Of a DNA stretch of 64,000 bases, positions 28,615-48,102 are shown piece by piece. The position numbers and the translations under genes were made by a program. Source of the DNA: a virus (Duplodnaviria > Heunggongvirae > Uroviricota > Caudoviricetes); the IMG/VR virus record IMGVR_UViG_2541047715_000004; one strand, written 5' to 3'. The stretch's first letter is position 1. Every line of letters begins with the position of its first letter. Under the pieces are notes generated by a model. The model ran no database searches. It was not told the origin of the DNA and saw only the letters and a program-made list of their open reading frames with translations.

Positions 28615-31600
28615 CTATATCTGCCCACCTACTCCTTTGAACTTTTCAATAAACGTGACGATTTTCTGGAAAACGGTCTGTTTTTTCGTTTTATATTGCG
28701 GGTTTAACGGACTAAGTTTTGGTAATGTCTCGTTTAATTCTGTGCCATTTTCGGTGGCGTATTCGCGTTTTAAAGACGTGCGAATATAGCGTTTCGCCGC
28801 CTCTTCATTGAGATTTTCTTCTTTTATCAATGCTTCTGCTTCACGTTGCTGTTCGCGTTGAGCAAACGTAAAGAATGCCTCAATGATACTGGCTTTGTCT
28901 GGTAAATCATCCAGGTTCGTTTGCTGAATAAAATCGACCACCAGGCCCTCTTTCGCCCGGTTCCCCAGGCTTGAACGAATTAAGCGTTTGACCTCTTCGA
29001 TCATTTCGCCCTTGCCTTTATTTTGTCTGTTGTGTTCGAAAATCAGTCCAAGGATATAATCCAGGTTTATTTCCTGAGACTTCAGCAAATCGACCTCAAA
29101 AACTACGTCATCCCAGTCAGTGGTTGATTTCTCTTTTTTCTCAGCTTCTTTCTCACGGCGCTGCCAGTCGCGAATATCGTTATAGGCAGAACGATAATCC
29201 TGAATCTTGCGTTCAGCAGGGAGACGAATTGTTTGCAATTCAGCGAACTTTTCATCATCCACATAATGTTCTGCTTTGAATTTTTCTACCGCAACAGGAT
29301 CGCTAAGATCGATTTGTTGCAGGGCTTTCAGCGTGGCAAATTCATCATAGTTTTGCAGGATGTTCTCGGCACGCAGGTATTCACCAAACAGTTTTACGAA
29401 GTCTTTCTTCTCTTTTTCACTTTCAATACTGGCAGGGTCAGGGAACCGTTGTTCCAGTTCTGAAACTACTGCCATAAAGCCGCGTTTAGCTTCACCAGTG
29501 GCAGCATCTGTAAAGCCTTCCATATACTCAGCATAACTCTTTTCTAACACCACATTTTTAGTATTTTTATCACCAAACAGCGTTATGGCATCAATGGTTG
29601 AGCGTTCCAGATCCCGAAAAGTGACGATGTTACCGAAGGTTTTAGTAGCGTCATAAATGCGGTTGGTACGGGAGAATGCCTGCATCAGGCCGTGAAAACG
29701 CAAGTTTTTATCGACGAATAGCGTGTTCAATGTTGGAGCGTCGAAGCCGGTTAAAAACATCCCAACGACAATTAACAGATCGATATCCTGATTTTTAACC
29801 CGTTGGGCTAAATCACGATAGTAGTTCTGAAAACCGTTACTGTCGGTGCTGAAGTTAGTTTTAAAATAGCTGTTATACTCACGAATTGCAGCGTCAAGAA
29901 ACTCTTTAGCACTGCTGTCCATTGCGCTGGTATCAAAAGTTTCATCGGAAATTTCACCAATGGCATTTTGTTCTTCATTGGCGGCAAAGGAGAAGATTGT
30001 TGCAACACGCAGCGGTTTATAGGTAGCCGATTTATTAGCTGCTTCCTCTTGTAACCGTTTAAACGTCGCGTAATAGGCTTTCGCGGCATCCACGCTACTC
30101 ACTGCCAGCATGGCATTAAAGCCTTTGGAACCTGGGAAAGTACGGTGGGTCTTCTGGCGGAAGTTATTCAGAATATATTGCGTAATTTCCTGTATACGCA
30201 TGGGATGAAGAAATGCCTGCTGATTTTCAGCCGCACTCAGTTTTTTCTCGTCGGTTTCTGTCTCTAAAGATTTAAACTGTGGCCGCACATCGTTGTAGTC
30301 CACCTTGAATTTGAGCACTTTTTCATCACGAATCGCATCGGTAATTACATACGAATGCAATTCACGACCAAATACGCTGGCGGTCGTTTCTGAGCCTAAG
30401 GCGTTTTCCGGGAAAATAGGTGTGCCGGTAAAACCAAACTGATAATAGCGTTTGAATTTCTTCTTCAGGTTTTTCTGCGCTTCTCCAAACTGGCTGCGGT
30501 GACATTCATCAAATATAAACACCACTTGCTGATTGTATACAGGCAGGTCGCTTTCTGCTTTCATCAGGTTATTAAGTTTCTGAATAGTGGTGACGATAAT
30601 TTTGTTATCGTCCTTATCCAGATTGCGTTTAAGACCTGCGGTATTTTCCGAGCCGTTGACGCTGTCTGGCGAAAAACGCTTATATTCATTCATGGTCTGG
30701 TAATCGAGGTCTTTCCTGTCGACCACGAAGAAGACTTTATCAATAAAGTCCAGCTCTGTTGCCAGACGCGCGGCTTTAAAGCTGGTGAGGGTTTTACCTG
30801 AACCGGTAGTGTGCCAGATATACCCACCGCTTTCCGGTTTTGACCAGTTCTTCGCTGTAAAGGAACTCTTAATTTTCCACAGAATGCGCTCAGTGGCGGC
30901 AATCTGGTACGGTCGCATCACCAGTAGCGTTTGGCTAACATCGAATACGCTGTAGTTCACTAAGACATTAAGCAGGGTATGTTTCTGGAAAAAGGTGGCG
31001 GTAAAGTCTTTGAGGTCTTTAATCAGCGTGTTGTCTGATTTCGCCCAATTCATGGTGAAGTCAAAACTGTTTTTATCGCGCTTTGTCGTGTTGGCAAAGT
31101 AACGGGTATCGGTGCCGTTGGAAATGACAAACAGTTGCAGATACTTAAACAGAGAATTTTCGCTGTTAAAACTCTCTTTGCTGTAACGATGTATCTGGTT
31201 AAAGGCCTCACGAATCGCCACGCCGCGCTTTTTCAGTTCGATTTGTACCAGCGGTAAGCCATTAACCAGGATCGTGACGTCATAACGGTTAGCATGAGAA
31301 CCCGTCTGTTCAAACTGCTGGATAATCTGCACCTTGTTGCGCATGAGATTCTTTTTATCTATCAAATAGATGTTCTCAAGACGCTCGTCATCAAAAATAA
31401 AGTCGCAAATATAGTCGATATGGATTTTACGGGTCTTATCCAGGATGCCATCGCTCGGGTTATCCAGATACTGCTCCGTGAAACGCCGCCATTCGCTGTC
31501 ATTAAACACCACACCATTGAGGTTCTGAAGCTGTTCCCGAACGTTGGCCAGCATCGCCGACTGAGATTTTACGGAAATAAATTCATAGCCCTGATTCCGC

Positions 31601-31731
31601 AGATCCTGAATCAGTTCACGTTCCAGGTCCGATTCGCTCTGGTAGCTGTCGCCTGTTTGCTCGGCTTTGATGTACTTATCAAGAACGATAAAGTTATTGG
31701 ATTCAGCAATGGTGTGTGTCTGATGAGTCAT
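28615..31731 (-). CDS. hsdR: type I restriction enzyme R subunit (type IC, EcoR124-like)
   Basis: 1038 aa; N-terminus [22 protein letters not shown] matches my recollection of EcoR124I HsdR; helicase motifs [16 protein letters not shown]. Confidence 0.9.
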
Positions 31732-31852
31732 AGCGCATCCTTTGTGCCGTCTGGCAAGGGCCGGAAGGGCTTTAAGGGCGACTTCCGGCGTGTAAAAAAT
31801 AGTCTCTATATAGACCGGATGTTAAGGTGATCCGGTCGGTAGCAATGGTCAA

Positions 31853-33100
31853 TTAGTTACTGATAGTTTCAGGTTTGGGAAAACTGAACAGTAAATCACG
31901 ATAGTACTCGTATTGTTTCTGGCGCAACTCGATTTCACGCGGAAGACCTTCGGTGATGGAATTGGTCAAAGCATCAAATTTATCCAGTAATTTCACTATT
32001 TTTTGTTGTTCAACTAGCGATCTTTCAGGAGAATCAGGAAATGGTACTGGTATCATAAGTTTTCTTAAGTTATCATTATAAAGTCTTTTAATAGTTCCAC
32101 CTTCAGATATTCCCCATTTTGCTATTTTATAGAAATAGAATAAATATTTATTTAAAACTATTTTTTCATTATTTTCAATCCAGACAATATTGCTATCCTG
32201 GAAATATGATTCCCTACCATCAAATATAACAGTCCTGCCGATGGTCCCACTGGCAGAAATCAATACTTCGCCAACTTTAGGATAACTATATTTTTCTTTA
32301 AATTCATTAAATAGTTTTCTAGATATATAGGAATCGGGTTCCTTACCAAATGTCCCAATTTTATAAAATGGAATCTCTCCCTCAGAAGATGTTTGTGATT
32401 TTAGGATTCGTTTACACATACGAACTTCACCAATTTCCCCCAAAGCTTTCCACTCAACCTCACCCTCTTTAAAACTCAACAACTGGTCGCGATAGTAGTT
32501 GTATTGTTTTTTACGCATGCTAAGCTCAGCGGTAAGCTCAGCGGTAAGTGCAGTAAATTTATCCAGAATCCTGACGATTTCAGACTGGATAGCCAGCGAC
32601 TTTTCCGGGTTGTTGGGGCAAGGGATGGGGATAAGTAATTTACCTATATCTTTAGCATACAAATGATAAACAGTAGAACCTTTAACCATTTGCAATATCT
32701 TTTTTTTGTTATTTATTATGAAATTACTTAGATATCTACCATCAACACCAGAGCATCTAATAATCAAAATATCGCCGCCTAAAATAACGCCACTTTCTTG
32801 AATGCAACTAGCTGTAGCCAAACCTCTTGGTGTAACGTCTGACGTTGGCATTAGAACATCATTTTTTTCAGATAGAATTGACTCATTGATTGCTTGGTTT
32901 GTTTTTGAGCATACTTTGTCAATTATGGGACCATAATGAGTGAAAAGCTCACCGTAATGAATACAATATCTATTGCCATCTGGAGTTATTTTTTCTTTAG
33001 GTAAAGACTTCCCTTTTAAAAAAGTTGCTAATTTATTTAATGCTACCCACTCAACCTCAGCCCCATCCAGCAGTTTTTCCAGATAACTCAGCTCGCTCAT
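31853..33100 (-). CDS. hsdS: type I restriction-modification specificity subunit (type IC)
   Basis: Two target-recognition domains separated by conserved central region containing TAELTAEL; conserved C-terminal [22 protein letters not shown]. Confidence 0.9.
32522..32545 (-). repeat. 2 x 12-bp tandem repeat encoding TAEL-TAEL in hsdS central conserved region
   Basis: aagctcagcggt repeated twice on + strand (ACCGCTGAGCTT on coding strand). Confidence 0.85.
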
Positions 33101-34659
33101 GCCTGTACCTCGCTACCTTCAATCTCAGCAACAATCGCATCAATATCTTTACGCAACTGGTCGATTTTGCTGACCGTGGTTTTCAGCTCAGCATTCAGCT
33201 CAGCGATATCGATAATTTCGCGAGTATCTTTCGCTTCCACATAGCTGCTCACCGACAGGTTATAGTCATTCGCGACAACAGTCTCAAACGCAACAGATTT
33301 CGCCAGATGAGCAACATCTTCCTTGCTGGCAAATACCTGCATAATCTGTTCGATATGAGCATCGGTCAGAATGTTGTTGTTAGTCTCTTTTTTGAACAGT
33401 TCGCTGGCATCAATAAACTGAACTTTGGTATCCGTTTTATGTTTAGACAGCACCAGAATATTGACGGCAATAGTGGTGCCAAAGAACAGATTCGGTGCCA
33501 GTGAAATCACGGTTTCGACATAGTTATTGTCGACCAGATACTGACGGATTTTCTGCTCCGCGCCGCCACGGTAAAAAATGCCTGGGAAGCAGACAATCGC
33601 AGCGCGACCTTTGGCCGAAAGATAGTTCAGCGCATGTAATACAAACGCAAAGTCAGCTTTGGATTTGGGGGCCAGAACGCCAGCCGGGGCAAAACGTTCA
33701 TCGTTAATCAGCGTCGGGTCATCGCTGCCAATCCATTTCACCGAATACGGCGGGTTAGAAACGATGGCATCAAACGGTTTTTCATCTCTGAAGTGCGGCT
33801 CAGTCAGTGTATTACCCAGCTTGATATCAAACTTGTCGTAGTTGATGTTGTGCAAAAACATGTTCATACGCGCCAGGTTATAGGTCGTATGGTTGATTTC
33901 CTGACCAAAAAAACCTTCTTCGATGATATGGTCATCAAACTGTTTTTTCGCCTGCAACAACAGCGAACCGGAGCCTGCTGCCGGGTCGTAGATTTTGTTA
34001 ACGTGGGTCTGCCCGTGCATAGCCAGTTGTGCAATCAGCTTAGAGACGTGCTGCGGTGTAAAGAACTCGCCGCCGGACTTACCGGCATTCGCCGCATAGT
34101 TAGAAATCAGGAACTCATAGGCGTCACCGAACAGGTCAATCTGATGTTCATGGAAGTCACCAAGTTTTAGCCCTTCAACCCCTTTCAGAACCGCAGCCAA
34201 GCGGGCATTTTTATCTTTAACGGTGTTACCCAGGCGGTTACTGGTGGTATCGAAATCAGCAAACAAACCTTTGATGTCAGCTTCTGAAGGATAACCGTAA
34301 GCAGAACTTTCGATAGCAACGAAGATGCTGTTTAAATCTGCATTCAGTCTGTCATTAGTATTTGCTTTCGCAGCTACGTTGCAGAAAAGCTGACTGGGGT
34401 AGATGAAGTAGCCTTTAGTTTTGATGGCATCGTCTTTAATGTCATCAGTAATTACGCTGTCATCCAGTTTCGCATAACAGATACTGTCATCACCGGCTTC
34501 AATATAACTGGAAAAATTTTCGCTGATAAAACGGTAAAAAAGCGCGCCCAAAACGTACTGCTTAAAATCCCATCCATCGACTGAACCCCTGACATCGTTA
34601 GCAATTTGCCAGATCTGGCGATGAAGCTCTGCACGTTGTTGAATACTTGTCATTTTCAT
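33097..34659 (-). CDS. hsdM: type I restriction-modification methyltransferase subunit
   Basis: N6-adenine MTase motifs including NPPYS; stop overlaps hsdS start (ATGA). Confidence 0.9.
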
Positions 34660-43481: not shown

Positions 43482-43856
43482 ATGGGACTTGATATCTATA
43501 TCGAGACACAGCCTAAAAACGATCTGAATAACGAGGCATCCAGAAAGCAGGTTGCTTACTTCCGTAAGTTCAATGCGCTCGTTGGGTGGATGGAGCGCAA
43601 CGTAGGTGAAGTCGAAAATTGTGAGCTTTTAGAATTAACGATGAATGACATTTGTTTTCTGAAGGCTCATTTGATGCACATAAACGAAAGCAATTGCGAA
43701 GAGTACTTGCCTACCCGGGAAGGTTTTTTCTTCGGCAGTCAGGAGTACGATGAAGGTTACTGGCATGACGTGGATAAGCTGAAAAAACTTGTGGAAGACC
43801 TGATCAGGAACCACGACTTTCACAATAACAGACTGACCTTCTGCGCCTGGTGGTAA
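43482..43856 (+). CDS. hypothetical protein
   Basis: Start taken at MGLDIYIET with AAGGAAA RBS. Confidence 0.45.
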   Translation: MGLDIYIETQPKNDLNNEASRKQVAYFRKFNALVGWMERNVGEVENCELLELTMNDICFLKAHLMHINESNCEEYLPTREGFFFGSQEYDEGYWHDVDKLKKLVEDLIRNHDFHNNRLTFCAWW

Positions 43857-43858
43857 AT

Positions 43859-44002
43859 ATGGGCGATTTCAAGAAACGCCTGAAGGAAAGAGCCGAGATG
43901 GTCAGAAAGCAAAACGCCTCTTCTGTCATCAGATACGCAAGGCAGTTTAGTCGCAACAACAAATCAGTTGAGGAAAAGATCCTTAGCGTAATCGTGCGAT
44001 AA
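43859..44002 (+). CDS. small basic ORF (below 60-aa cutoff, uncertain)
   Basis: 47 codons MGDFKKRLKERAEMVRKQ..., followed by hairpin aaggccatcagcattggtggcctt. Confidence 0.2.
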   Translation: MGDFKKRLKERAEMVRKQNASSVIRYARQFSRNNKSVEEKILSVIVR

Positions 44003-44206
44003 TTATTAAGGCCATCAGCATTGGTGGCCTTAAATGACCATCTTGTTTCCCGCAGGCTAAAAACACCAACCTCTTACCTCCAGGCAACCGACAAACCCAC
44101 CTGTTCCCGTCCGGCTACCGCAACTTTCCACTTTGACGCCTTATTCGTACAACGATAATTAACGCCAACAAGAAAACAATTTGTTATTTACGATAAGGAA
44201 TTAATC

Positions 44207-44689
44207 ATGAATTTTATCGCTACTGTAAACGCACCCGCACATGGCAATATCGCTGTAACGTTCTCTGACATTGAAAAACGAGTACTTGGTGCATGGCGCG
44301 ACAATGAGACGGTAGAACTGTCAGCACAAGAAAAATGCATTATTGCACGCGACATCATTGGCAATCGTCGTTACTCGCGGGTATTTGAGAAAGCGTATGT
44401 GGTAAATTCTGGATTCGGAACGTTCGTCTTTCCGGTGCGCTCCGGGCGATTCTGCCAGTCCAAGCTGATTGAGTTCGCTACGCAGATTTCTGTCTGGATT
44501 AAAACTCAATCGTCGTTCAAATTTTCCGACGATGAAGCAGTATCGCAGGGGATGCGGATCGCCAACAATGCGATTAAATGCAAAAACATTACGTATACCG
44601 CTGGCGTTGATACATGGAAACTGTTTTGCGCTAACTTTATGCTGAATGTATACGCAAGCAACCGCATCCACATCCTTGATGGCGTGTAA
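44207..44689 (+). CDS. hypothetical protein
   Basis: 160-aa ORF with GAAAACAATTTGTT motif upstream. Confidence 0.5.
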   Translation: MNFIATVNAPAHGNIAVTFSDIEKRVLGAWRDNETVELSAQEKCIIARDIIGNRRYSRVFEKAYVVNSGFGTFVFPVRSGRFCQSKLIEFATQISVWIKTQSSFKFSDDEAVSQGMRIANNAIKCKNITYTAGVDTWKLFCANFMLNVYASNRIHILDGV

Positions 44690-44691
44690 CT

Positions 44692-44722
44692 GAGAAGAGG
44701 GCCAGAAACGGCCCTTTCTCTA
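44692..44722 (+). terminator. rho-independent terminator
   Basis: Hairpin gagaagagggcc-agaaac-ggccctttctc. Confidence 0.5.
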
Positions 44723-44741
44723 TAGCCACCAGCTGCCGCAG

Positions 44742-44830
44742 GGAAATTTTCAGAAACGGCGAGGAACGTATTCATGAGCCGACGGGGAACGGCCAGGATT
44801 TTTTCGGGAAACGGCTGCATTCGCCTTTAT
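44742..44830. repeat. second GGGAAACGG-like repeat cluster
   Basis: cagaaacggcgagg, ggggaacggccagg, gggaaacggctgc at about 22-bp spacing. Confidence 0.5.
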
Positions 44831-44939
44831 GTAGAAAAAACATCGGGAAGCTGGTGGAATCCAACCAGCGGTTGTCGGACAGGTGAGCGGGGAAAATTAT
44901 GATGACTTTCGTCGCCTGAGACATCCAGATTTCTTTCGT

Positions 44940-45065
44940 AGCGTAATCACATATGTGATTAAGTGGTGTGATTATGTGAAAAATCACGCGCACATAATAC
45001 GAGAGCGGATACGGAACAAAACAAAATGCCGATCCGCGCCGACAATTAAACGCGGATCACATAGC
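44940..45065. promoter_or_regulatory. cluster of palindromes (putative operator region)
   Basis: Perfect 16-bp palindrome AATCACATATGTGATT; ATTATGTG...CACATAAT; GATCCGCG...CGCGGATC. Confidence 0.35.
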
Positions 45066-45281
45066 AAGAATAAAAGCCAATGATTAACCATACACCATAA
45101 CGCAATATAACGCGATTTAAGCGCGTTAATGCGCTAAGTAATGGGTATGTACTGGTAAGGATATAAAAGCGCGTCTATGGCGTTATTTTGGCGCTTATTT
45201 TTATGTTGTTGGTGTGAGTCAAAGACAATAAAAAAAGCGCCATCATTGGCGCGTTATGGTGGAAGTATTGGAAACGAAAAA

Positions 45282-45300
45282 AGCGCCCATAGTGGGCGCT
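45282..45300 (-). terminator. terminator hairpin for minus-strand operon (repeated hairpin family)
   Basis: agcgccca-tag-tgggcgct with T-run on minus strand; the same 20-mer aaagcgcccatagtgggcgc recurs at 45549-45568. Confidence 0.5.
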
Positions 45301-45305
45301 CGATT

Positions 45306-45536
45306 TTATTTATGTAAACTGATTTCAAATCCCATTTCTACAAACGCTTTTAACATTAAAAATATATCAGCGTCATTCATGTCTGCTTTTTTTCGCTCCT
45401 GGTCGCTCAATAAGTCAATTTTGCGCGTCGTTTCATCTATAAGCTCGACTGCGCGCCCAGCGTAACCAGCGATCCCAGCGATGCGATTAACAAAATATTC
45501 ATTACGTACGTTAACGCCAGCGATAAGAATAAACAT
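45306..45536 (-). CDS. small hypothetical protein
   Basis: Start taken at MFILIAGV with AAGGAG RBS; second gene of a two-gene minus-strand operon. Confidence 0.4.
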   Translation of the reverse strand: MFILIAGVNVRNEYFVNRIAGIAGYAGRAVELIDETTRKIDLLSDQERKKADMNDADIFLMLKAFVEMGFEISLHK

Positions 45537-45583
45537 GATTAAGCTCCTTAAAAGCGCCCATAGTGGGCGCAAGATTCCATTAA

Positions 45584-46234
45584 TTACGCTTTGAAAGCAT
45601 CAGCCAGATAGTTATAGAAATCATTTTTAATGAAGCGATATTGCTGCGTACCAGCTTTTGCGCTTCCCATTCCTTTGACTTTCTCAACAAGTCCAAGACG
45701 TTCGCAAAGATTGATCAACTGGTTGGCTTGAGTATAGCCAGCGTCCAATTTAATTTCGCACGCTTTTTTAGCTTCATTCATTAAATCGAAAACAGCGCCA
45801 TTGGTGAACGTGTCGATCTCGTCGTTAATCATATCGATTAAAGCGAATACACGAGATCCTGACATATCAGCGATGGAATAAACGCATTTACCAGCTTTAA
45901 TTGATTTAACCAGATAGACCAGTTTTTCCAGTGAATAACTATTAGTCATTGCATCACGGAAAAATACTTCTGGCGCTTGTTTACTTGCTTTGATCGCATA
46001 GTAGAAAACAGAGCATAATTTTTCGTCTTCTACTGCGTTCACAACGTTGTTGATGAAGTAAGCAAGTTTAGTGGTCGCAGCTTGCATGTTTGCTTTGTCT
46101 GCTTTTGTGTGCGTACCATTTTTATAATGTTCGTTATATGTTTGAGTTGCCAGATCTGCTTTTTCGCGCAGCTCGTCGGATACAATGGCAGCAGCTTCAA
46201 TGATGGATTTTTTAGAAATGATAATGTTAGCCAT
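45584..46234 (-). CDS. hypothetical protein
   Basis: 216-aa ORF in AT-rich block with AT-rich upstream region 46235-46480. Confidence 0.5.
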   Translation of the reverse strand: MANIIISKKSIIEAAAIVSDELREKADLATQTYNEHYKNGTHTKADKANMQAATTKLAYFINNVVNAVEDEKLCSVFYYAIKASKQAPEVFFRDAMTNSYSLEKLVYLVKSIKAGKCVYSIADMSGSRVFALIDMINDEIDTFTNGAVFDLMNEAKKACEIKLDAGYTQANQLINLCERLGLVEKVKGMGSAKAGTQQYRFIKNDFYNYLADAFKA

Positions 46235-46531
46235 GATTTTATTCCTTAGTATAAATATTAAAATTTAACTCAAGAAAGAAAGTGTTTTGCACTCGTTCCT
46301 GATGCGTTCAATTATCGATACGCGAAAAAAGATTGCAAGTGTTTTTTTAAGTTTTTTTGCAGGGATGAAAGTCTTAGAAATAAAAGCGAGATCGTCGAAG
46401 GTGTTCCCTAAATAAATAATAAATTCCGGCTTTTGACCTTATATATTTATACGGGGGAGAATTGAATGAGTGTTAAACGAATGGCATGTAAAATAATAAC
46501 CGGACTTAGCCGGTTATTACCCTTATAGAAA

Positions 46532-47053
46532 TTAAAACGGAAGGATTCGTTCAACCCAATCGAAGAAAATAAGTATTTTTCTACCGTCTTCCAACTTAAG
46601 TGTGACTAGACAGGCGTCAACGCCATCTGACGTTCCCTCAATTTCGCGACCGTCTGCCATGTAGACCCTTATAGATTTGCCGTTTTGGTAAGCCTGACGA
46701 CATATCTTAAAAAAGTCACGACGTGATGGCTGATTAACCATCTGTTCATTGTTTAGCGTTAGTCGACCTGTGAATGAAGTGTCAACCTCTTCTATGCCCG
46801 ACTCAATTGTGCTAATGCGCTCAAGAGGGAGCCTTATACGATTTGTGTTGCTAAGCGGATCTGGTGTGAGGTTCAGCTTATTTCTTGCGCTCAATAGCCC
46901 GTAGACATACATGCAAAACACTTGGCCGTCTTCGAGAGTGACTCTTACAGGAAATTTTGCACTCCGCCAGAAGAGCAAGGTGCGCTCAGCATGTTCGTAG
47001 TCTCGCGGCCAGACTTCAGCCGGTATGCCGTAGGTGATGTCCAATGTTCTCAT
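46532..47053 (-). CDS. hypothetical protein
   Basis: 173-aa ORF overlapping upstream gene by ATGA; terminator hairpin aataaccggacttagccggttatt downstream. Confidence 0.5.
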   Translation of the reverse strand: MRTLDITYGIPAEVWPRDYEHAERTLLFWRSAKFPVRVTLEDGQVFCMYVYGLLSARNKLNLTPDPLSNTNRIRLPLERISTIESGIEEVDTSFTGRLTLNNEQMVNQPSRRDFFKICRQAYQNGKSIRVYMADGREIEGTSDGVDACLVTLKLEDGRKILIFFDWVERILPF

Positions 47054-47643
47054 TCTGATACTCTTAGAGGTGTTTTCAGCAACCCAAATTTAAATTCTTT
47101 GTTACCAACGACAAAGAAGGGAACCTCAACATAGATTTTTTTATCGACGGATTTAGAGTTAGCTGTTTTATGTATGTCACGAACGATACGTTTTGAGATA
47201 TTTTCATCGATAAACAATACCTTTCCACTTGTATTCCCTTCAGCCTTGGCGTAAGTAACGATAGGCTCTTCATTGCCAACCCTAATGTTTACTTGGCAAC
47301 CTGTTGTAGCCATTTCATCACAGTAAAGTGTGCCGTCTTGAACTTCCAAAACAATTCCAGATGGCTTCATGGCTTCGTCAGAGCTTACATTAACGTTTTC
47401 TGGTACAGCGGTCCCGTTAATTTGCAACCGTAATCTTTCTTTTCCTGCATTAAGTATTGTTTCTTCTGCGTTATCTGAGAATCTGAACCAGACTGGTTGA
47501 ATCAGACCTCGTGATTCGTATTTTAGTACGTCTTCAGAAGTATACATGCTGTACGTTTTTTGCATGTCGGAGACGATATCTGACAACGCATTTGCGGAAA
47601 ATGACGAGAGGTATATACAAGCAAGAAGTAACGAACGTTTCAT
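47050..47643 (-). CDS. hypothetical secreted protein
   Basis: N-terminal signal peptide MKRSLLLACIYLSSFSANA. Confidence 0.5.
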   Translation of the reverse strand: MKRSLLLACIYLSSFSANALSDIVSDMQKTYSMYTSEDVLKYESRGLIQPVWFRFSDNAEETILNAGKERLRLQINGTAVPENVNVSSDEAMKPSGIVLEVQDGTLYCDEMATTGCQVNIRVGNEEPIVTYAKAEGNTSGKVLFIDENISKRIVRDIHKTANSKSVDKKIYVEVPFFVVGNKEFKFGLLKTPLRVSE

Positions 47644-47823
47644 TTTTATACAGCGATTATTGCAAAGTAGAATTATAAATATCCAATAGTCTCAAACGAT
47701 AAGTTTTCAACTGTAAATAGCAGACGTGTTTCTCTAAAAGCTGTGCGGCAAAGGCGTTGTTGCCGCACTCTGTCTATTAGCTCTTCAAGTCTGGCAATTC
47801 TGAAATTGACTAAGAATCCAATA

Positions 47824-48102
47824 TTACGGCAGTTTGCTTAGAATTTGCTCTAAATCTTCCTTTGTCATATTAGAGTTCTCATAGATGCGCATGATTTTCT
47901 CACGAGCCTTAGCAGAGACTCCAACGGCAGATGAAACTTTGTCAAATTCAGCCATTGTCATCGCTTCCAGAATGGTATTGATAACTTCAGCCTTAGACAT
48001 TTTGATGTTTTTTTCTTTTAGTTTCATTTGAAACTTTCCAAGTTTGTCATTGGCCTTATCGGACAATGCCACCTGACAATAAGTTGTTTTCTTTTCGCTC
48101 AT
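47824..48102 (-). CDS. small hypothetical protein
   Basis: 92 aa, immediately downstream of helicase gene; terminator hairpin gtgcggcaa...ttgccgcac follows on minus strand. Confidence 0.45.
   Translation of the reverse strand: MSEKKTTYCQVALSDKANDKLGKFQMKLKEKNIKMSKAEVINTILEAMTMAEFDKVSSAVGVSAKAREKIMRIYENSNMTKEDLEQILSKLP

Follow-up and report, generated by a model that had tools for sequence, protein, structure and literature searches.

We examined a pair of minus-strand genes, encoding proteins of 216 and 76 amino acids (aa), that lies between about positions 45100 and 46530 of a 64,000-nucleotide (nt) stretch of Caudoviricetes DNA (IMG/VR record IMGVR_UViG_2541047715_000004, hereafter called the window). 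The reading that we favor, and that we hold somewhat likelier to be right than wrong, is that the pair forms a backbone operon of SSU5-type phage-plasmids that is off in the plasmid state, encodes a winged-helix regulator, ends in terminator hairpins, and carries a leaky copy of one of these hairpins between its two genes. The transcriptional anatomy of the locus is much more secure than the function of the 216-aa protein. Clinical Klebsiella, E. coli, Enterobacter, and Salmonella very often carry SSU5-type phage-plasmids, a group to which pMT1 of Yersinia pestis and the pHCM2-like plasmids belong, and the switch between plasmid maintenance and lytic growth in these elements is largely unexplained. 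An operon that is core, silent in lysogens, predicted to encode a DNA binder, and preceded by an unusually conserved control region is a candidate for a role in this switch or in early takeover of the host. A first-pass annotation of the window had proposed an acquired accessory cassette with a defense, antidefense, or toxin-antitoxin (TA)-like role, and much of the value of our analysis is negative: the hairpins are read as terminators, AT-richness is no evidence of recent acquisition, and the locus is not a defense-island candidate.

By nucleotide comparison, the window is part of an SSU5-type phage-plasmid, since positions 44900-46700 are 96% identical to Escherichia phage PhiR41_1, 93% identical to phage Cyrano (plasmid pLF82 of E. 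coli LF82), and 82% identical to Salmonella phage SSU5 and match 778 PLSDB plasmids, most of them listed as non-mobilizable and about 105-115 kb long. Both proposed open reading frames (ORFs) are real; the smaller is 76 aa when counted from its ATG and 88 aa as a mechanical ORF starting at an upstream TTG. The genes are already catalogued publicly as hypothetical proteins, including CYRAN_113 (216 aa) and CYRAN_112 (76 aa) in Cyrano, SSU5_120 (the large gene) and SSU5_119 in SSU5, WP_002211799 on pMT1, and PHROG 1513, 1585, and 6145. We found no functional study of them in the literature: a heteroresistance preprint deals with a different phage-plasmid family, a paper on integrons in phages does not treat the locus, and the PHROG identifiers are missing from the tyPPing supplements. 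The lack of recognizable domains noted at first pass was borne out, as Pfam, NCBIfam, and PADLOC were negative for both proteins and PHROGs returned only the unknown-function families 1513 and 1585. In PADLOC, with E values up to 0.1 allowed, the three neighbors gave no match either.

The 216-aa gene belongs to the core of the lineage. A tblastn search of PLSDB gave 815 plasmids, about 103-115 kb in size, that carry it (Klebsiella, 346; Escherichia, 217; Enterobacter, 91; Yersinia, 62, including pMT1 of Y. pestis CO92; Salmonella, 49; Citrobacter, 25; Cronobacter, 10), with homologues of 33-42% identity on Pectobacterium, Providencia, and Moellerella plasmids of 103-108 kb. A search with the window's large terminase gave 803 plasmids at 60% identity or more, with nearly the same genus counts, and because the two sets of counts mirror each other, the distribution indicates that essentially every Enterobacterales SSU5-type phage-plasmid carries the 216-aa gene as part of its core. 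It occupies the same syntenic position throughout. No homologue was found beyond this lineage: 102 clusters among 5.8 billion proteins all lie on contigs of SSU5-like kind, a profile search of 1.84 billion representatives gave 23 matches from the same lineage, and tblastn with the most distant members again returned only phage-plasmids, of about 103-110 kb. The gene is under strong purifying selection, with pairwise ratios of nonsynonymous to synonymous substitution (dN/dS) of 0.06-0.13 at a dS of 0.8-2. This is not the variable distribution of a defense island; only the slot for the small gene varies. Thus, of the proposed acquired cassette, the part that stands is an exchangeable small-gene slot flanked by hairpin copies, and the 216-aa gene itself is core, syntenic, and vertically inherited.

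The AT-richness that had been taken as a sign of import is real and moderate, with a GC content of 0.384 for positions 45100-46530 versus 0.459 for the window, which puts the segment in the lowest 1.1% of 1430-bp windows. GC content is equally low elsewhere in the window only at 31.5-33 kb; that other stretch (about 31500-33500, GC about 0.37) overlaps minus-strand ORFs of 1038 and 415 aa. Across ten lineages, the GC content of the 216-aa gene stays at 0.375-0.415 regardless of its flanks, which range from 0.44 to 0.51. Low GC content in all lineages makes AT-richness an old property of the gene and no mark of recent acquisition.

Expression of the pair could be followed in lysogens of the relative Cyrano, for which a re-analysis of LF82 transcriptome sequencing gives values as log2(FPKM+5), where FPKM is fragments per kilobase per million mapped reads and 2.32 corresponds to zero (PMC9928086, S1 Table); this data set holds no induced sample. 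In stationary phase in lysogeny broth, CYRAN_112 stood at 2.32 and 2.32 and CYRAN_113 at 2.78 and 2.32, and both lie below the median of the element, with the flanking genes CYRAN_111, 114, 115, and 117 at 18-114 normalized counts (PMC9928086). Neither gene appears in the published list of lysogen-expressed genes, which includes the TA modules of the element (PMC9928086). Both these modules (KacT, RelE, HicAB) and the moron genes of the element are expressed in lysogens. CYRAN_113 reaches about 40-46 FPKM only at 6 h in macrophages, alongside other replication-type genes (PMC9928086). From the silence of the operon in Cyrano lysogens, we infer that it is off in the carrier state of this close relative and is used after induction or infection.

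Structure prediction gave a clue to the function of the 216-aa protein. The first-pass annotation had called for remote homology and structure searches; sequence searches found nothing beyond the lineage, and the AlphaFold2 model (19-sequence alignment, predicted local distance difference test [pLDDT] score of 82.8) shows a C-terminal winged helix. Residues 8-68 are predicted as a very confident helical hairpin, followed by three helices in a region that includes the most conserved stretch of the protein (residues 76-112), and the C-terminal part runs helix, strand, helix, helix, strand, strand, helix. No structure matched the whole protein; only the C-terminal ~90 residues align, and they do so to winged-helix DNA binders. 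Foldseek placed this part with RTP, TubR, MukE/F, PadR/LmrR, and CzrA at probabilities of 0.97-1.0 and target template modeling (TM) scores of 0.5-0.6, all with E values above 0.02; a BFVD search gave similar winged-helix matches, and the Cdc6/Orc1 winged-helix domain was also among the structural matches. The invariant residues of the family include T168, Q169, and G181, in or just after the putative recognition helix; T168 and Q169 begin the third helix. Weak Pfam matches, none above threshold, appeared in single family members and were to winged-helix families only (DUF2250, FtsK_gamma, ANAPC2, and Linker_histone), and neither the single protein nor a profile found a match among PDB sequences. 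Since its C-terminal ~90 residues align repeatedly to winged-helix DNA binders, it is a reasonable inference from the model that the 216-aa protein binds DNA.

The first-pass annotation was also supported in treating the pair as a distinct transcription unit of two genes on the minus strand, with a control region and terminators of its own (Table 1). Its 5' boundary is the terminator of the fljA-like gene, which is kept in relatives with at least 74% protein identity. The promoter lies behind about 200 nt of control sequence conserved throughout the lineage, and the conserved blocks in the 300 nt of noncoding DNA upstream of the 216-aa gene are all unique to the locus. The blocks TTTAGGGAACACCTTCGA and TTATTTCTAAGACTTTCAT are conserved across the lineage despite a dS of 0.8-2 in the adjacent gene. 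An A-rich UP-like tract stands immediately 5' of the -35, and the promoter layout and position are the same in all relatives. The deepest branches (Pectobacterium, Providencia, and Moellerella) keep ATATATAAGG, AATTTATTtAGGGAACACCTtC about 25 nt later, TTTTCTAAGACTTT, the A-tract, and the promoter.

Table 1. Features of the two-gene operon and its surroundings, in order of minus-strand transcription (window coordinates)
Feature	Position	Strand	Sequence and basis
Terminator hairpin of the fljA-like gene	46495-46518	-	AATAACCGG-CTAAGT-CCGGTTATT, then UAUUUU; -15.3 kcal/mol, z -3.9
Upstream direct repeats	46435-46529	-	TCTATAAGGGT at 46519-46529; degenerate ATATATAAGGT at 46436-46446
Two conserved noncoding blocks	46365-46412	-	TTTAGGGAACACCTTCGA (46395-46412), TTATTTCTAAGACTTTCAT (46365-46383)
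Putative sigma-70-type promoter	46311-46362	-	-35 TTGCAA at 46333-46338, 16-nt spacer, -10 GATAAT at 46311-46316; consensus scan
Leader, about 70 nt	46235-46304	-	Ribosome-binding site TAAGGAAT, N6, ATG
216-aa gene	45584-46234	-	PHROG 1513; N-terminal helical hairpin and helices, C-terminal winged helix (predicted)
Intercistronic hairpin	45550-45570	-	GCGCCCA-CUA-UGGGCGC, UUUU, then AAGGAG (45544-45549); -13.2 kcal/mol; first 20-mer copy
76-aa gene (family A)	45306-45536	-	PHROG 1585; exchangeable small-gene slot
Terminator T1	45276-45300	-	AGCGCCCA-CUA-UGGGCGCU, then UUUUUU; -15.5 kcal/mol, z -4.6; second 20-mer copy; terminator scan
Terminator T2	45230-45252	-	GCGCCA-AUGA-UGGCGC (45237-45252), then UUUUUUU; -10.7 kcal/mol; tandem, 45 nt past T1
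Further GCGC-rich stems of the convergent intergenic region	45110-45195	.	Plus strand: GGCGTTATTTTGGCGCT, then T-run, facing the convergent 160-aa gene
Distal terminator-like hairpin	45030-45059	-	UGAUCCGCG...CGCGGAUCG, then GCAUUUUGUU; -18.3 kcal/mol; terminator scan

Several elements of this region are candidate binding sequences, namely, the TCTATAAGGGT repeats, the GGGAACACCTTC block, a dyad in the leader, and the T1 palindrome. A third, exact copy of TCTATAAGGGT lies at 46665-46675 within the fljA-like coding sequence, where it uses an AGG codon. The exact 11-mer occurs in the window only there and at 46519-46529, and its only copies in about 100 kb of Cyrano are at the corresponding sites; repeats of this type are kept in all relatives, down to Pectobacterium and Providencia, with irregular spacing (146 and 84 nt). 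The leader of most relatives contains a 24-nt dyad, (A/G)TCGAAAGC-N6-GCTAACGA(T/C), that starts a few bases past the -10; it is self-complementary at 18 of 24 positions in Cyrano, shows one double change from A-T to G-C, and is replaced by other sequence in the window's own lineage. No further copy of it was found in Cyrano or the window. As an RNA structure, the leader element is too weak (7 pairs, -6.3 kcal/mol, with a compensatory change at one pair only). Three other ideas were set aside: TATAAGGGT is not a general phage promoter, as its one-mismatch copies are no commoner than chance in the window and its exact copies lie only at the locus; a likeness of the conserved upstream block to the P1 C1 operator (11/17 by eye) was judged an AT-rich coincidence; and a search for an operator shared with the CYRAN_45 immunity region found only chance-level 11-mers. 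Rfam gave two chance-level matches on positions 43800-47800 with E values up to 1.

The hairpin cluster reported at first pass is present, with four to five GCGC-rich stems within 45110-45300, among them two small overlapping ones at 45110-45135 and another at about 45167-45195, and one more at 45030-45059. The repeated 20-mer, AAAGCGCCCATAGTGGGCGC, has exactly two copies, at 45280-45299 and 45551-45570, a correction of 1-2 nt to the positions first given; the chance expectation for matches to it in the window is zero, even allowing 3 mismatches. These copies make up one stem-loop on either side of the 76-aa gene, the T1 stem-loop (45282-45300) being the intercistronic one plus one extra pair. 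Stems of the GCGCC type are restricted to the neighborhood of the locus, the remaining terminators in the window having other stems, and the palindrome GCGCCCA-N3-TGGGCGC has no copy elsewhere in the window or in about 100 kb of Cyrano. T1, T2, and the distal hairpin each join a GC-rich stem-loop to a U-tract in the terminator scan; the intercistronic copy, set in a 47-nt spacer, has only UUUU.

We compared these hairpins across about 90 related loci (designated by L numbers). In nearly all relatives from 100% down to 61% protein identity, the stem GCGCCCA/UGGGCGC stands 9-16 nt past the stop codon of the 216-aa gene, a second copy with a run of five or six U residues ends the operon, and T2 comes next in almost all of them, its loop and stem varying. 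Hairpins thus come after the 216-aa gene and after the last small gene in nearly the whole sample. Two A-type genes in succession (L029 and L031) go with three hairpin copies, one 3' of each gene. Eight relatives without a small gene (L059, L061, L063, L064, L075, L076, L080, and L082) have a single hairpin followed by a full TTTTTT, and L059 equals SSU5 on both flanks, minus exactly the segment between the hairpins. Serratia-like and Pectobacterium relatives carry a hairpin of other sequence at the same position, canonical as a terminator in Pectobacterium, so that structure and position, not sequence, are conserved there. From their sequence and placement, we take the hairpins to be Rho-independent terminators, one stem-loop of which is duplicated around the small-gene slot.

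A separate feature of these stems is that the loops of T1 and T2 often flip to their reverse complements between near-identical genomes (L003, L013, L016, L036, L081, and others). The T1 loop reads CTA in 118 copies versus TAG in 18, and T2 flips between ATGA and TCAT, TTGT and ACAA, and TTGA and TCAA. Flips between genomes this close imply frequent inversion of the palindrome center. An integron gene cassette was considered and rejected, as the repeat is a perfect palindrome of 17-21 nt with a 3-nt loop, compared with about 57-141 bp of imperfect inverted repeats for attC; there is no integron integrase in the neighborhood, and no attC-specific model was applied.

The contents of the small-gene slot differ even among elements whose 216-aa proteins are at least 98% identical. 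It holds family A alone in the window and Cyrano; family B alone in SSU5 and many Klebsiella elements; B followed by A in PhiR41_1 and most E. coli elements; and, in others, A' with A, B with A', an A variant with 50% identity, or nothing. Each small ORF has a strong ribosome-binding site in front of it. A and A' belong to PHROG 1585. B belongs to PHROG 6145, and because the small gene of the deepest branches (L004 and L005) does too, B is, on this sequence grouping, probably the ancestral occupant. Family A is confined to the SSU5-type lineage, and neither small protein has a homologue in other phages. The 76-aa gene contains a 9-nt tandem repeat (45451-45480, encoding IAG-IAG-YAG), at which homologues vary by the loss of 3 or 6 residues. 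Modeling of the 76-aa protein with AlphaFold gave a poor result (pLDDT, 54), which was not used. B is a helical protein of 67 aa (SSU5_119; L001, 4123-4326) that was labeled "MIT family metal ion transporter CorA" in SSU5, a label propagated into PHROGs; it is almost certainly a misannotation, being implausible for a short soluble helical protein. In a metagenomic relative (L007/L008, 4001-5100) whose 216-aa homologue is close to one from Serratia quinivorans, the 215-aa gene and its promoter have the opposite orientation with respect to the helicase block; a small gene is missing, and repeats of the TATAAGG type are downstream of the 215-aa gene and not upstream.

In the model that we favor, a sigma-70-type promoter with an A-rich upstream tract, placed behind control sequence conserved throughout the lineage, would drive an operon that is off in the lysogenic plasmid of a close relative and would be switched on following induction or infection. 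The 216-aa protein would most likely be a dimeric, lineage-specific winged-helix DNA-binding regulator of transcription or replication. T1 and T2 would end transcription ahead of the convergent genes. The extra T1 stem-loop directly 3' of the 216-aa gene has lost most of its U-tract, the short remainder of which leads into the following ribosome-binding site, and is probably a leaky terminator or a 3' stabilizer, so that some transcripts would reach the small gene and the small protein would be scarcer than the 216-aa protein. The two direct copies of the hairpin may also serve as recombination joints by which small genes of families A and B are gained, lost, and swapped; direct repetition of the hairpin would explain the loss of the small gene in L059 and probably its exchange likewise.

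Several points weigh against this model. In the only set of conditions that gave measurable reads, the ratio of small-gene to large-gene expression in Cyrano is inconsistent, at about 0.4-0.5 at 6 h in macrophages and above 1 at 1 h (PMC9928086). The expression evidence comes from a relative sampled without a lytic stage, so that lytic timing is read from silence in the lysogen, and silencing of the AT-rich promoter by H-NS would produce the same picture. All structural matches of the 216-aa protein have E values above 0.01 and cover ~90 residues, and the protein has no significant sequence homology to DNA binders. Finally, the T1 stem is invariant across lineages in which synonymous sites are saturated, and a terminator constrained by structure only should show compensatory changes; this points to some sequence-specific constraint or to frequent recombination, which a terminator role does not explain.

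The locus lies at the end of a minus-strand block that comprises genes for a UvsW-like helicase, a 92-aa protein, a 197-aa protein, and a fljA-like regulator and that converges with a long plus-strand series of hypothetical genes. ParB-like genes are also among the neighbors; RepA and ParA of SSU5-type elements are encoded away from the locus. An array of four GCCGTTTC(C/T) copies, which read GAAACGGC on the plus strand, occupies about 44700-44830, just past the terminator of the convergent 160-aa gene, and is kept even in the most distant relatives (L004, L005, and Pectobacterium); as a sequence pattern, it looks like a set of protein-binding sites. At 44945-44990, a large noncoding region contains a perfect 16-bp palindrome, AATCACATATGTGATT, followed by more TGTGATTA and AATCAC half-sites; the palindrome is conserved only in part in SSU5. 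The 92-aa gene (47824-48102, minus strand) has a Cyrano homologue, CYRAN_117, that is among the top-expressed genes of the element in lysogens, 12-fold over background. The product of the fljA-like gene (46532-47053, minus strand) is a full-length homologue of FljA, the Salmonella phase-1 flagellin repressor (PF03614, E value of 1.4e-68), and its Cyrano counterpart CYRAN_114 is expressed in lysogens, more highly in Dulbecco's modified Eagle medium and in macrophages. This homology and expression suggest that the element may modulate host flagellin.

The alternative that fares best, unlikely as we consider it, is an acr-aca-type antidefense locus, in which the winged-helix protein would autoregulate a strong early promoter and A and B would be counterdefense payloads for the start of infection. 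A conserved protein of predicted helix-turn-helix type does adjoin rapidly exchanged small ORFs, each well provided for translation, the locus is silent in lysogens, and most relatives, although not the window, have the unique dyad directly past the -10. However, the gene order is reversed, with the regulator first, and this protein, at 216 aa and with a large helical N-terminal half that is highly conserved, exceeds what an Aca-type regulator needs. The presence of family B in the deepest branches makes it look ancestral rather than like a shuffled payload, eight relatives do without any small gene, the small proteins are without relatives in other phages, and A could not be modeled well. A stronger form of the idea, to which we give the same small chance, is a dedicated, autoregulated counterdefense or host takeover locus in which the winged-helix protein controls its own promoter and the duplicated hairpin is a joint for swapping payloads; if true, this would make the locus a mini-cassette system that is bounded by hairpins and differs from integrons.

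Slightly less probable still is that the palindrome GCGCCCA-N3-TGGGCGC is primarily a sequence-specific site, as DNA or as an RNA hairpin, most simply for the 216-aa protein; binding would then mark the locus or govern whether transcription continues into the small genes. This would account for its uniqueness to the locus and for the invariance of both 7-nt arms from 100% down to 61% protein identity, a range over which synonymous sites are saturated, with free variation in the central 3 nt (CTA, TAG, TTG, TTA, CAA, ATA, TAA, and TCA). Yet every copy stands at a terminator position with a U-run or its remnant, the neighboring T2 hairpin behaves alike, the Pectobacterium and Serratia-like relatives have a hairpin of different sequence there, and recombination between copies and elements would also yield invariant arms.

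We regard as more doubtful again a replication or partition module in which the protein would be a winged-helix initiator or centromere binder acting on the TCTATAAGGGT repeats upstream and the GCCGTTTC repeats downstream. TubR, RTP, and the Cdc6/Orc1 winged-helix domain are among its structural matches, conserved and locus-specific direct repeats lie on both sides, and genes for the UvsW-like helicase and ParB-like proteins are nearby. These matches are, however, nonsignificant and generic for winged helices, the repeats are spaced unlike iterons, RepA and ParA are encoded elsewhere, and a maintenance gene should be on in the carrier state, in which the 216-aa gene is off. An iteron-type origin with its Rep gene was rejected, the repeats being 11 nt long and irregularly spaced, the locus giving no Rep-family match, and RepA lying elsewhere.

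An acquired cassette for antiphage defense or a TA pair acting in the carrier cell is the least credible reading and very improbable: AT-richness, two domainless orphan proteins, a two-gene layout with a small partner, and the presence of true TA modules elsewhere on the same phage-plasmids would suit it, but it is contradicted by the core, syntenic, and vertically inherited state of the 216-aa gene, by a low GC content common to all lineages, by the lack of a PADLOC or Pfam match, by a partner that is not obligate (missing in eight relatives and of an unrelated family in many), and by the near-zero FPKM of both Cyrano genes in lysogens that express the KacT, RelE, and HicAB modules.

Set against known systems, the model of a backbone operon with a winged-helix regulator and terminator hairpins has three points of comparison. 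The predicted C-terminal fold order of the 216-aa protein (helix, strand, helix, helix, strand, strand) and its recognition-helix-plus-wing motif ...TQANQLINLCERLGLVEK... are shared with MarR/PadR/ArsR-type and TubR/RTP-type proteins; these proteins differ in giving no significant sequence or profile match and in having no counterpart to its highly conserved helical N-terminal half of ~120 residues. With acr-aca operons, the locus shares a conserved predicted DNA binder and rapidly exchanged small ORFs in one early-type operon, with a promoter dyad in most relatives. It differs from them in that the regulator comes first and not last and is much larger, and in that there are just two small-gene families, whose proteins have no homologues of known function. 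The hairpins resemble tandem Rho-independent terminators and intercistronic attenuators, of which the partial terminator between rplL and rpoB of E. coli is an example. They have GC-rich stems of 6-9 bp, loops of 3-4 nt, and U-runs at gene 3' ends, one copy lies between two cistrons with a shortened U-tract, and in the convergent setting some are usable on both strands. Unlike known terminators, one stem-loop sequence, whose terminator action here is predicted, is used two or three times to bracket exchangeable genes, and its stem is unusually invariant across the lineage.

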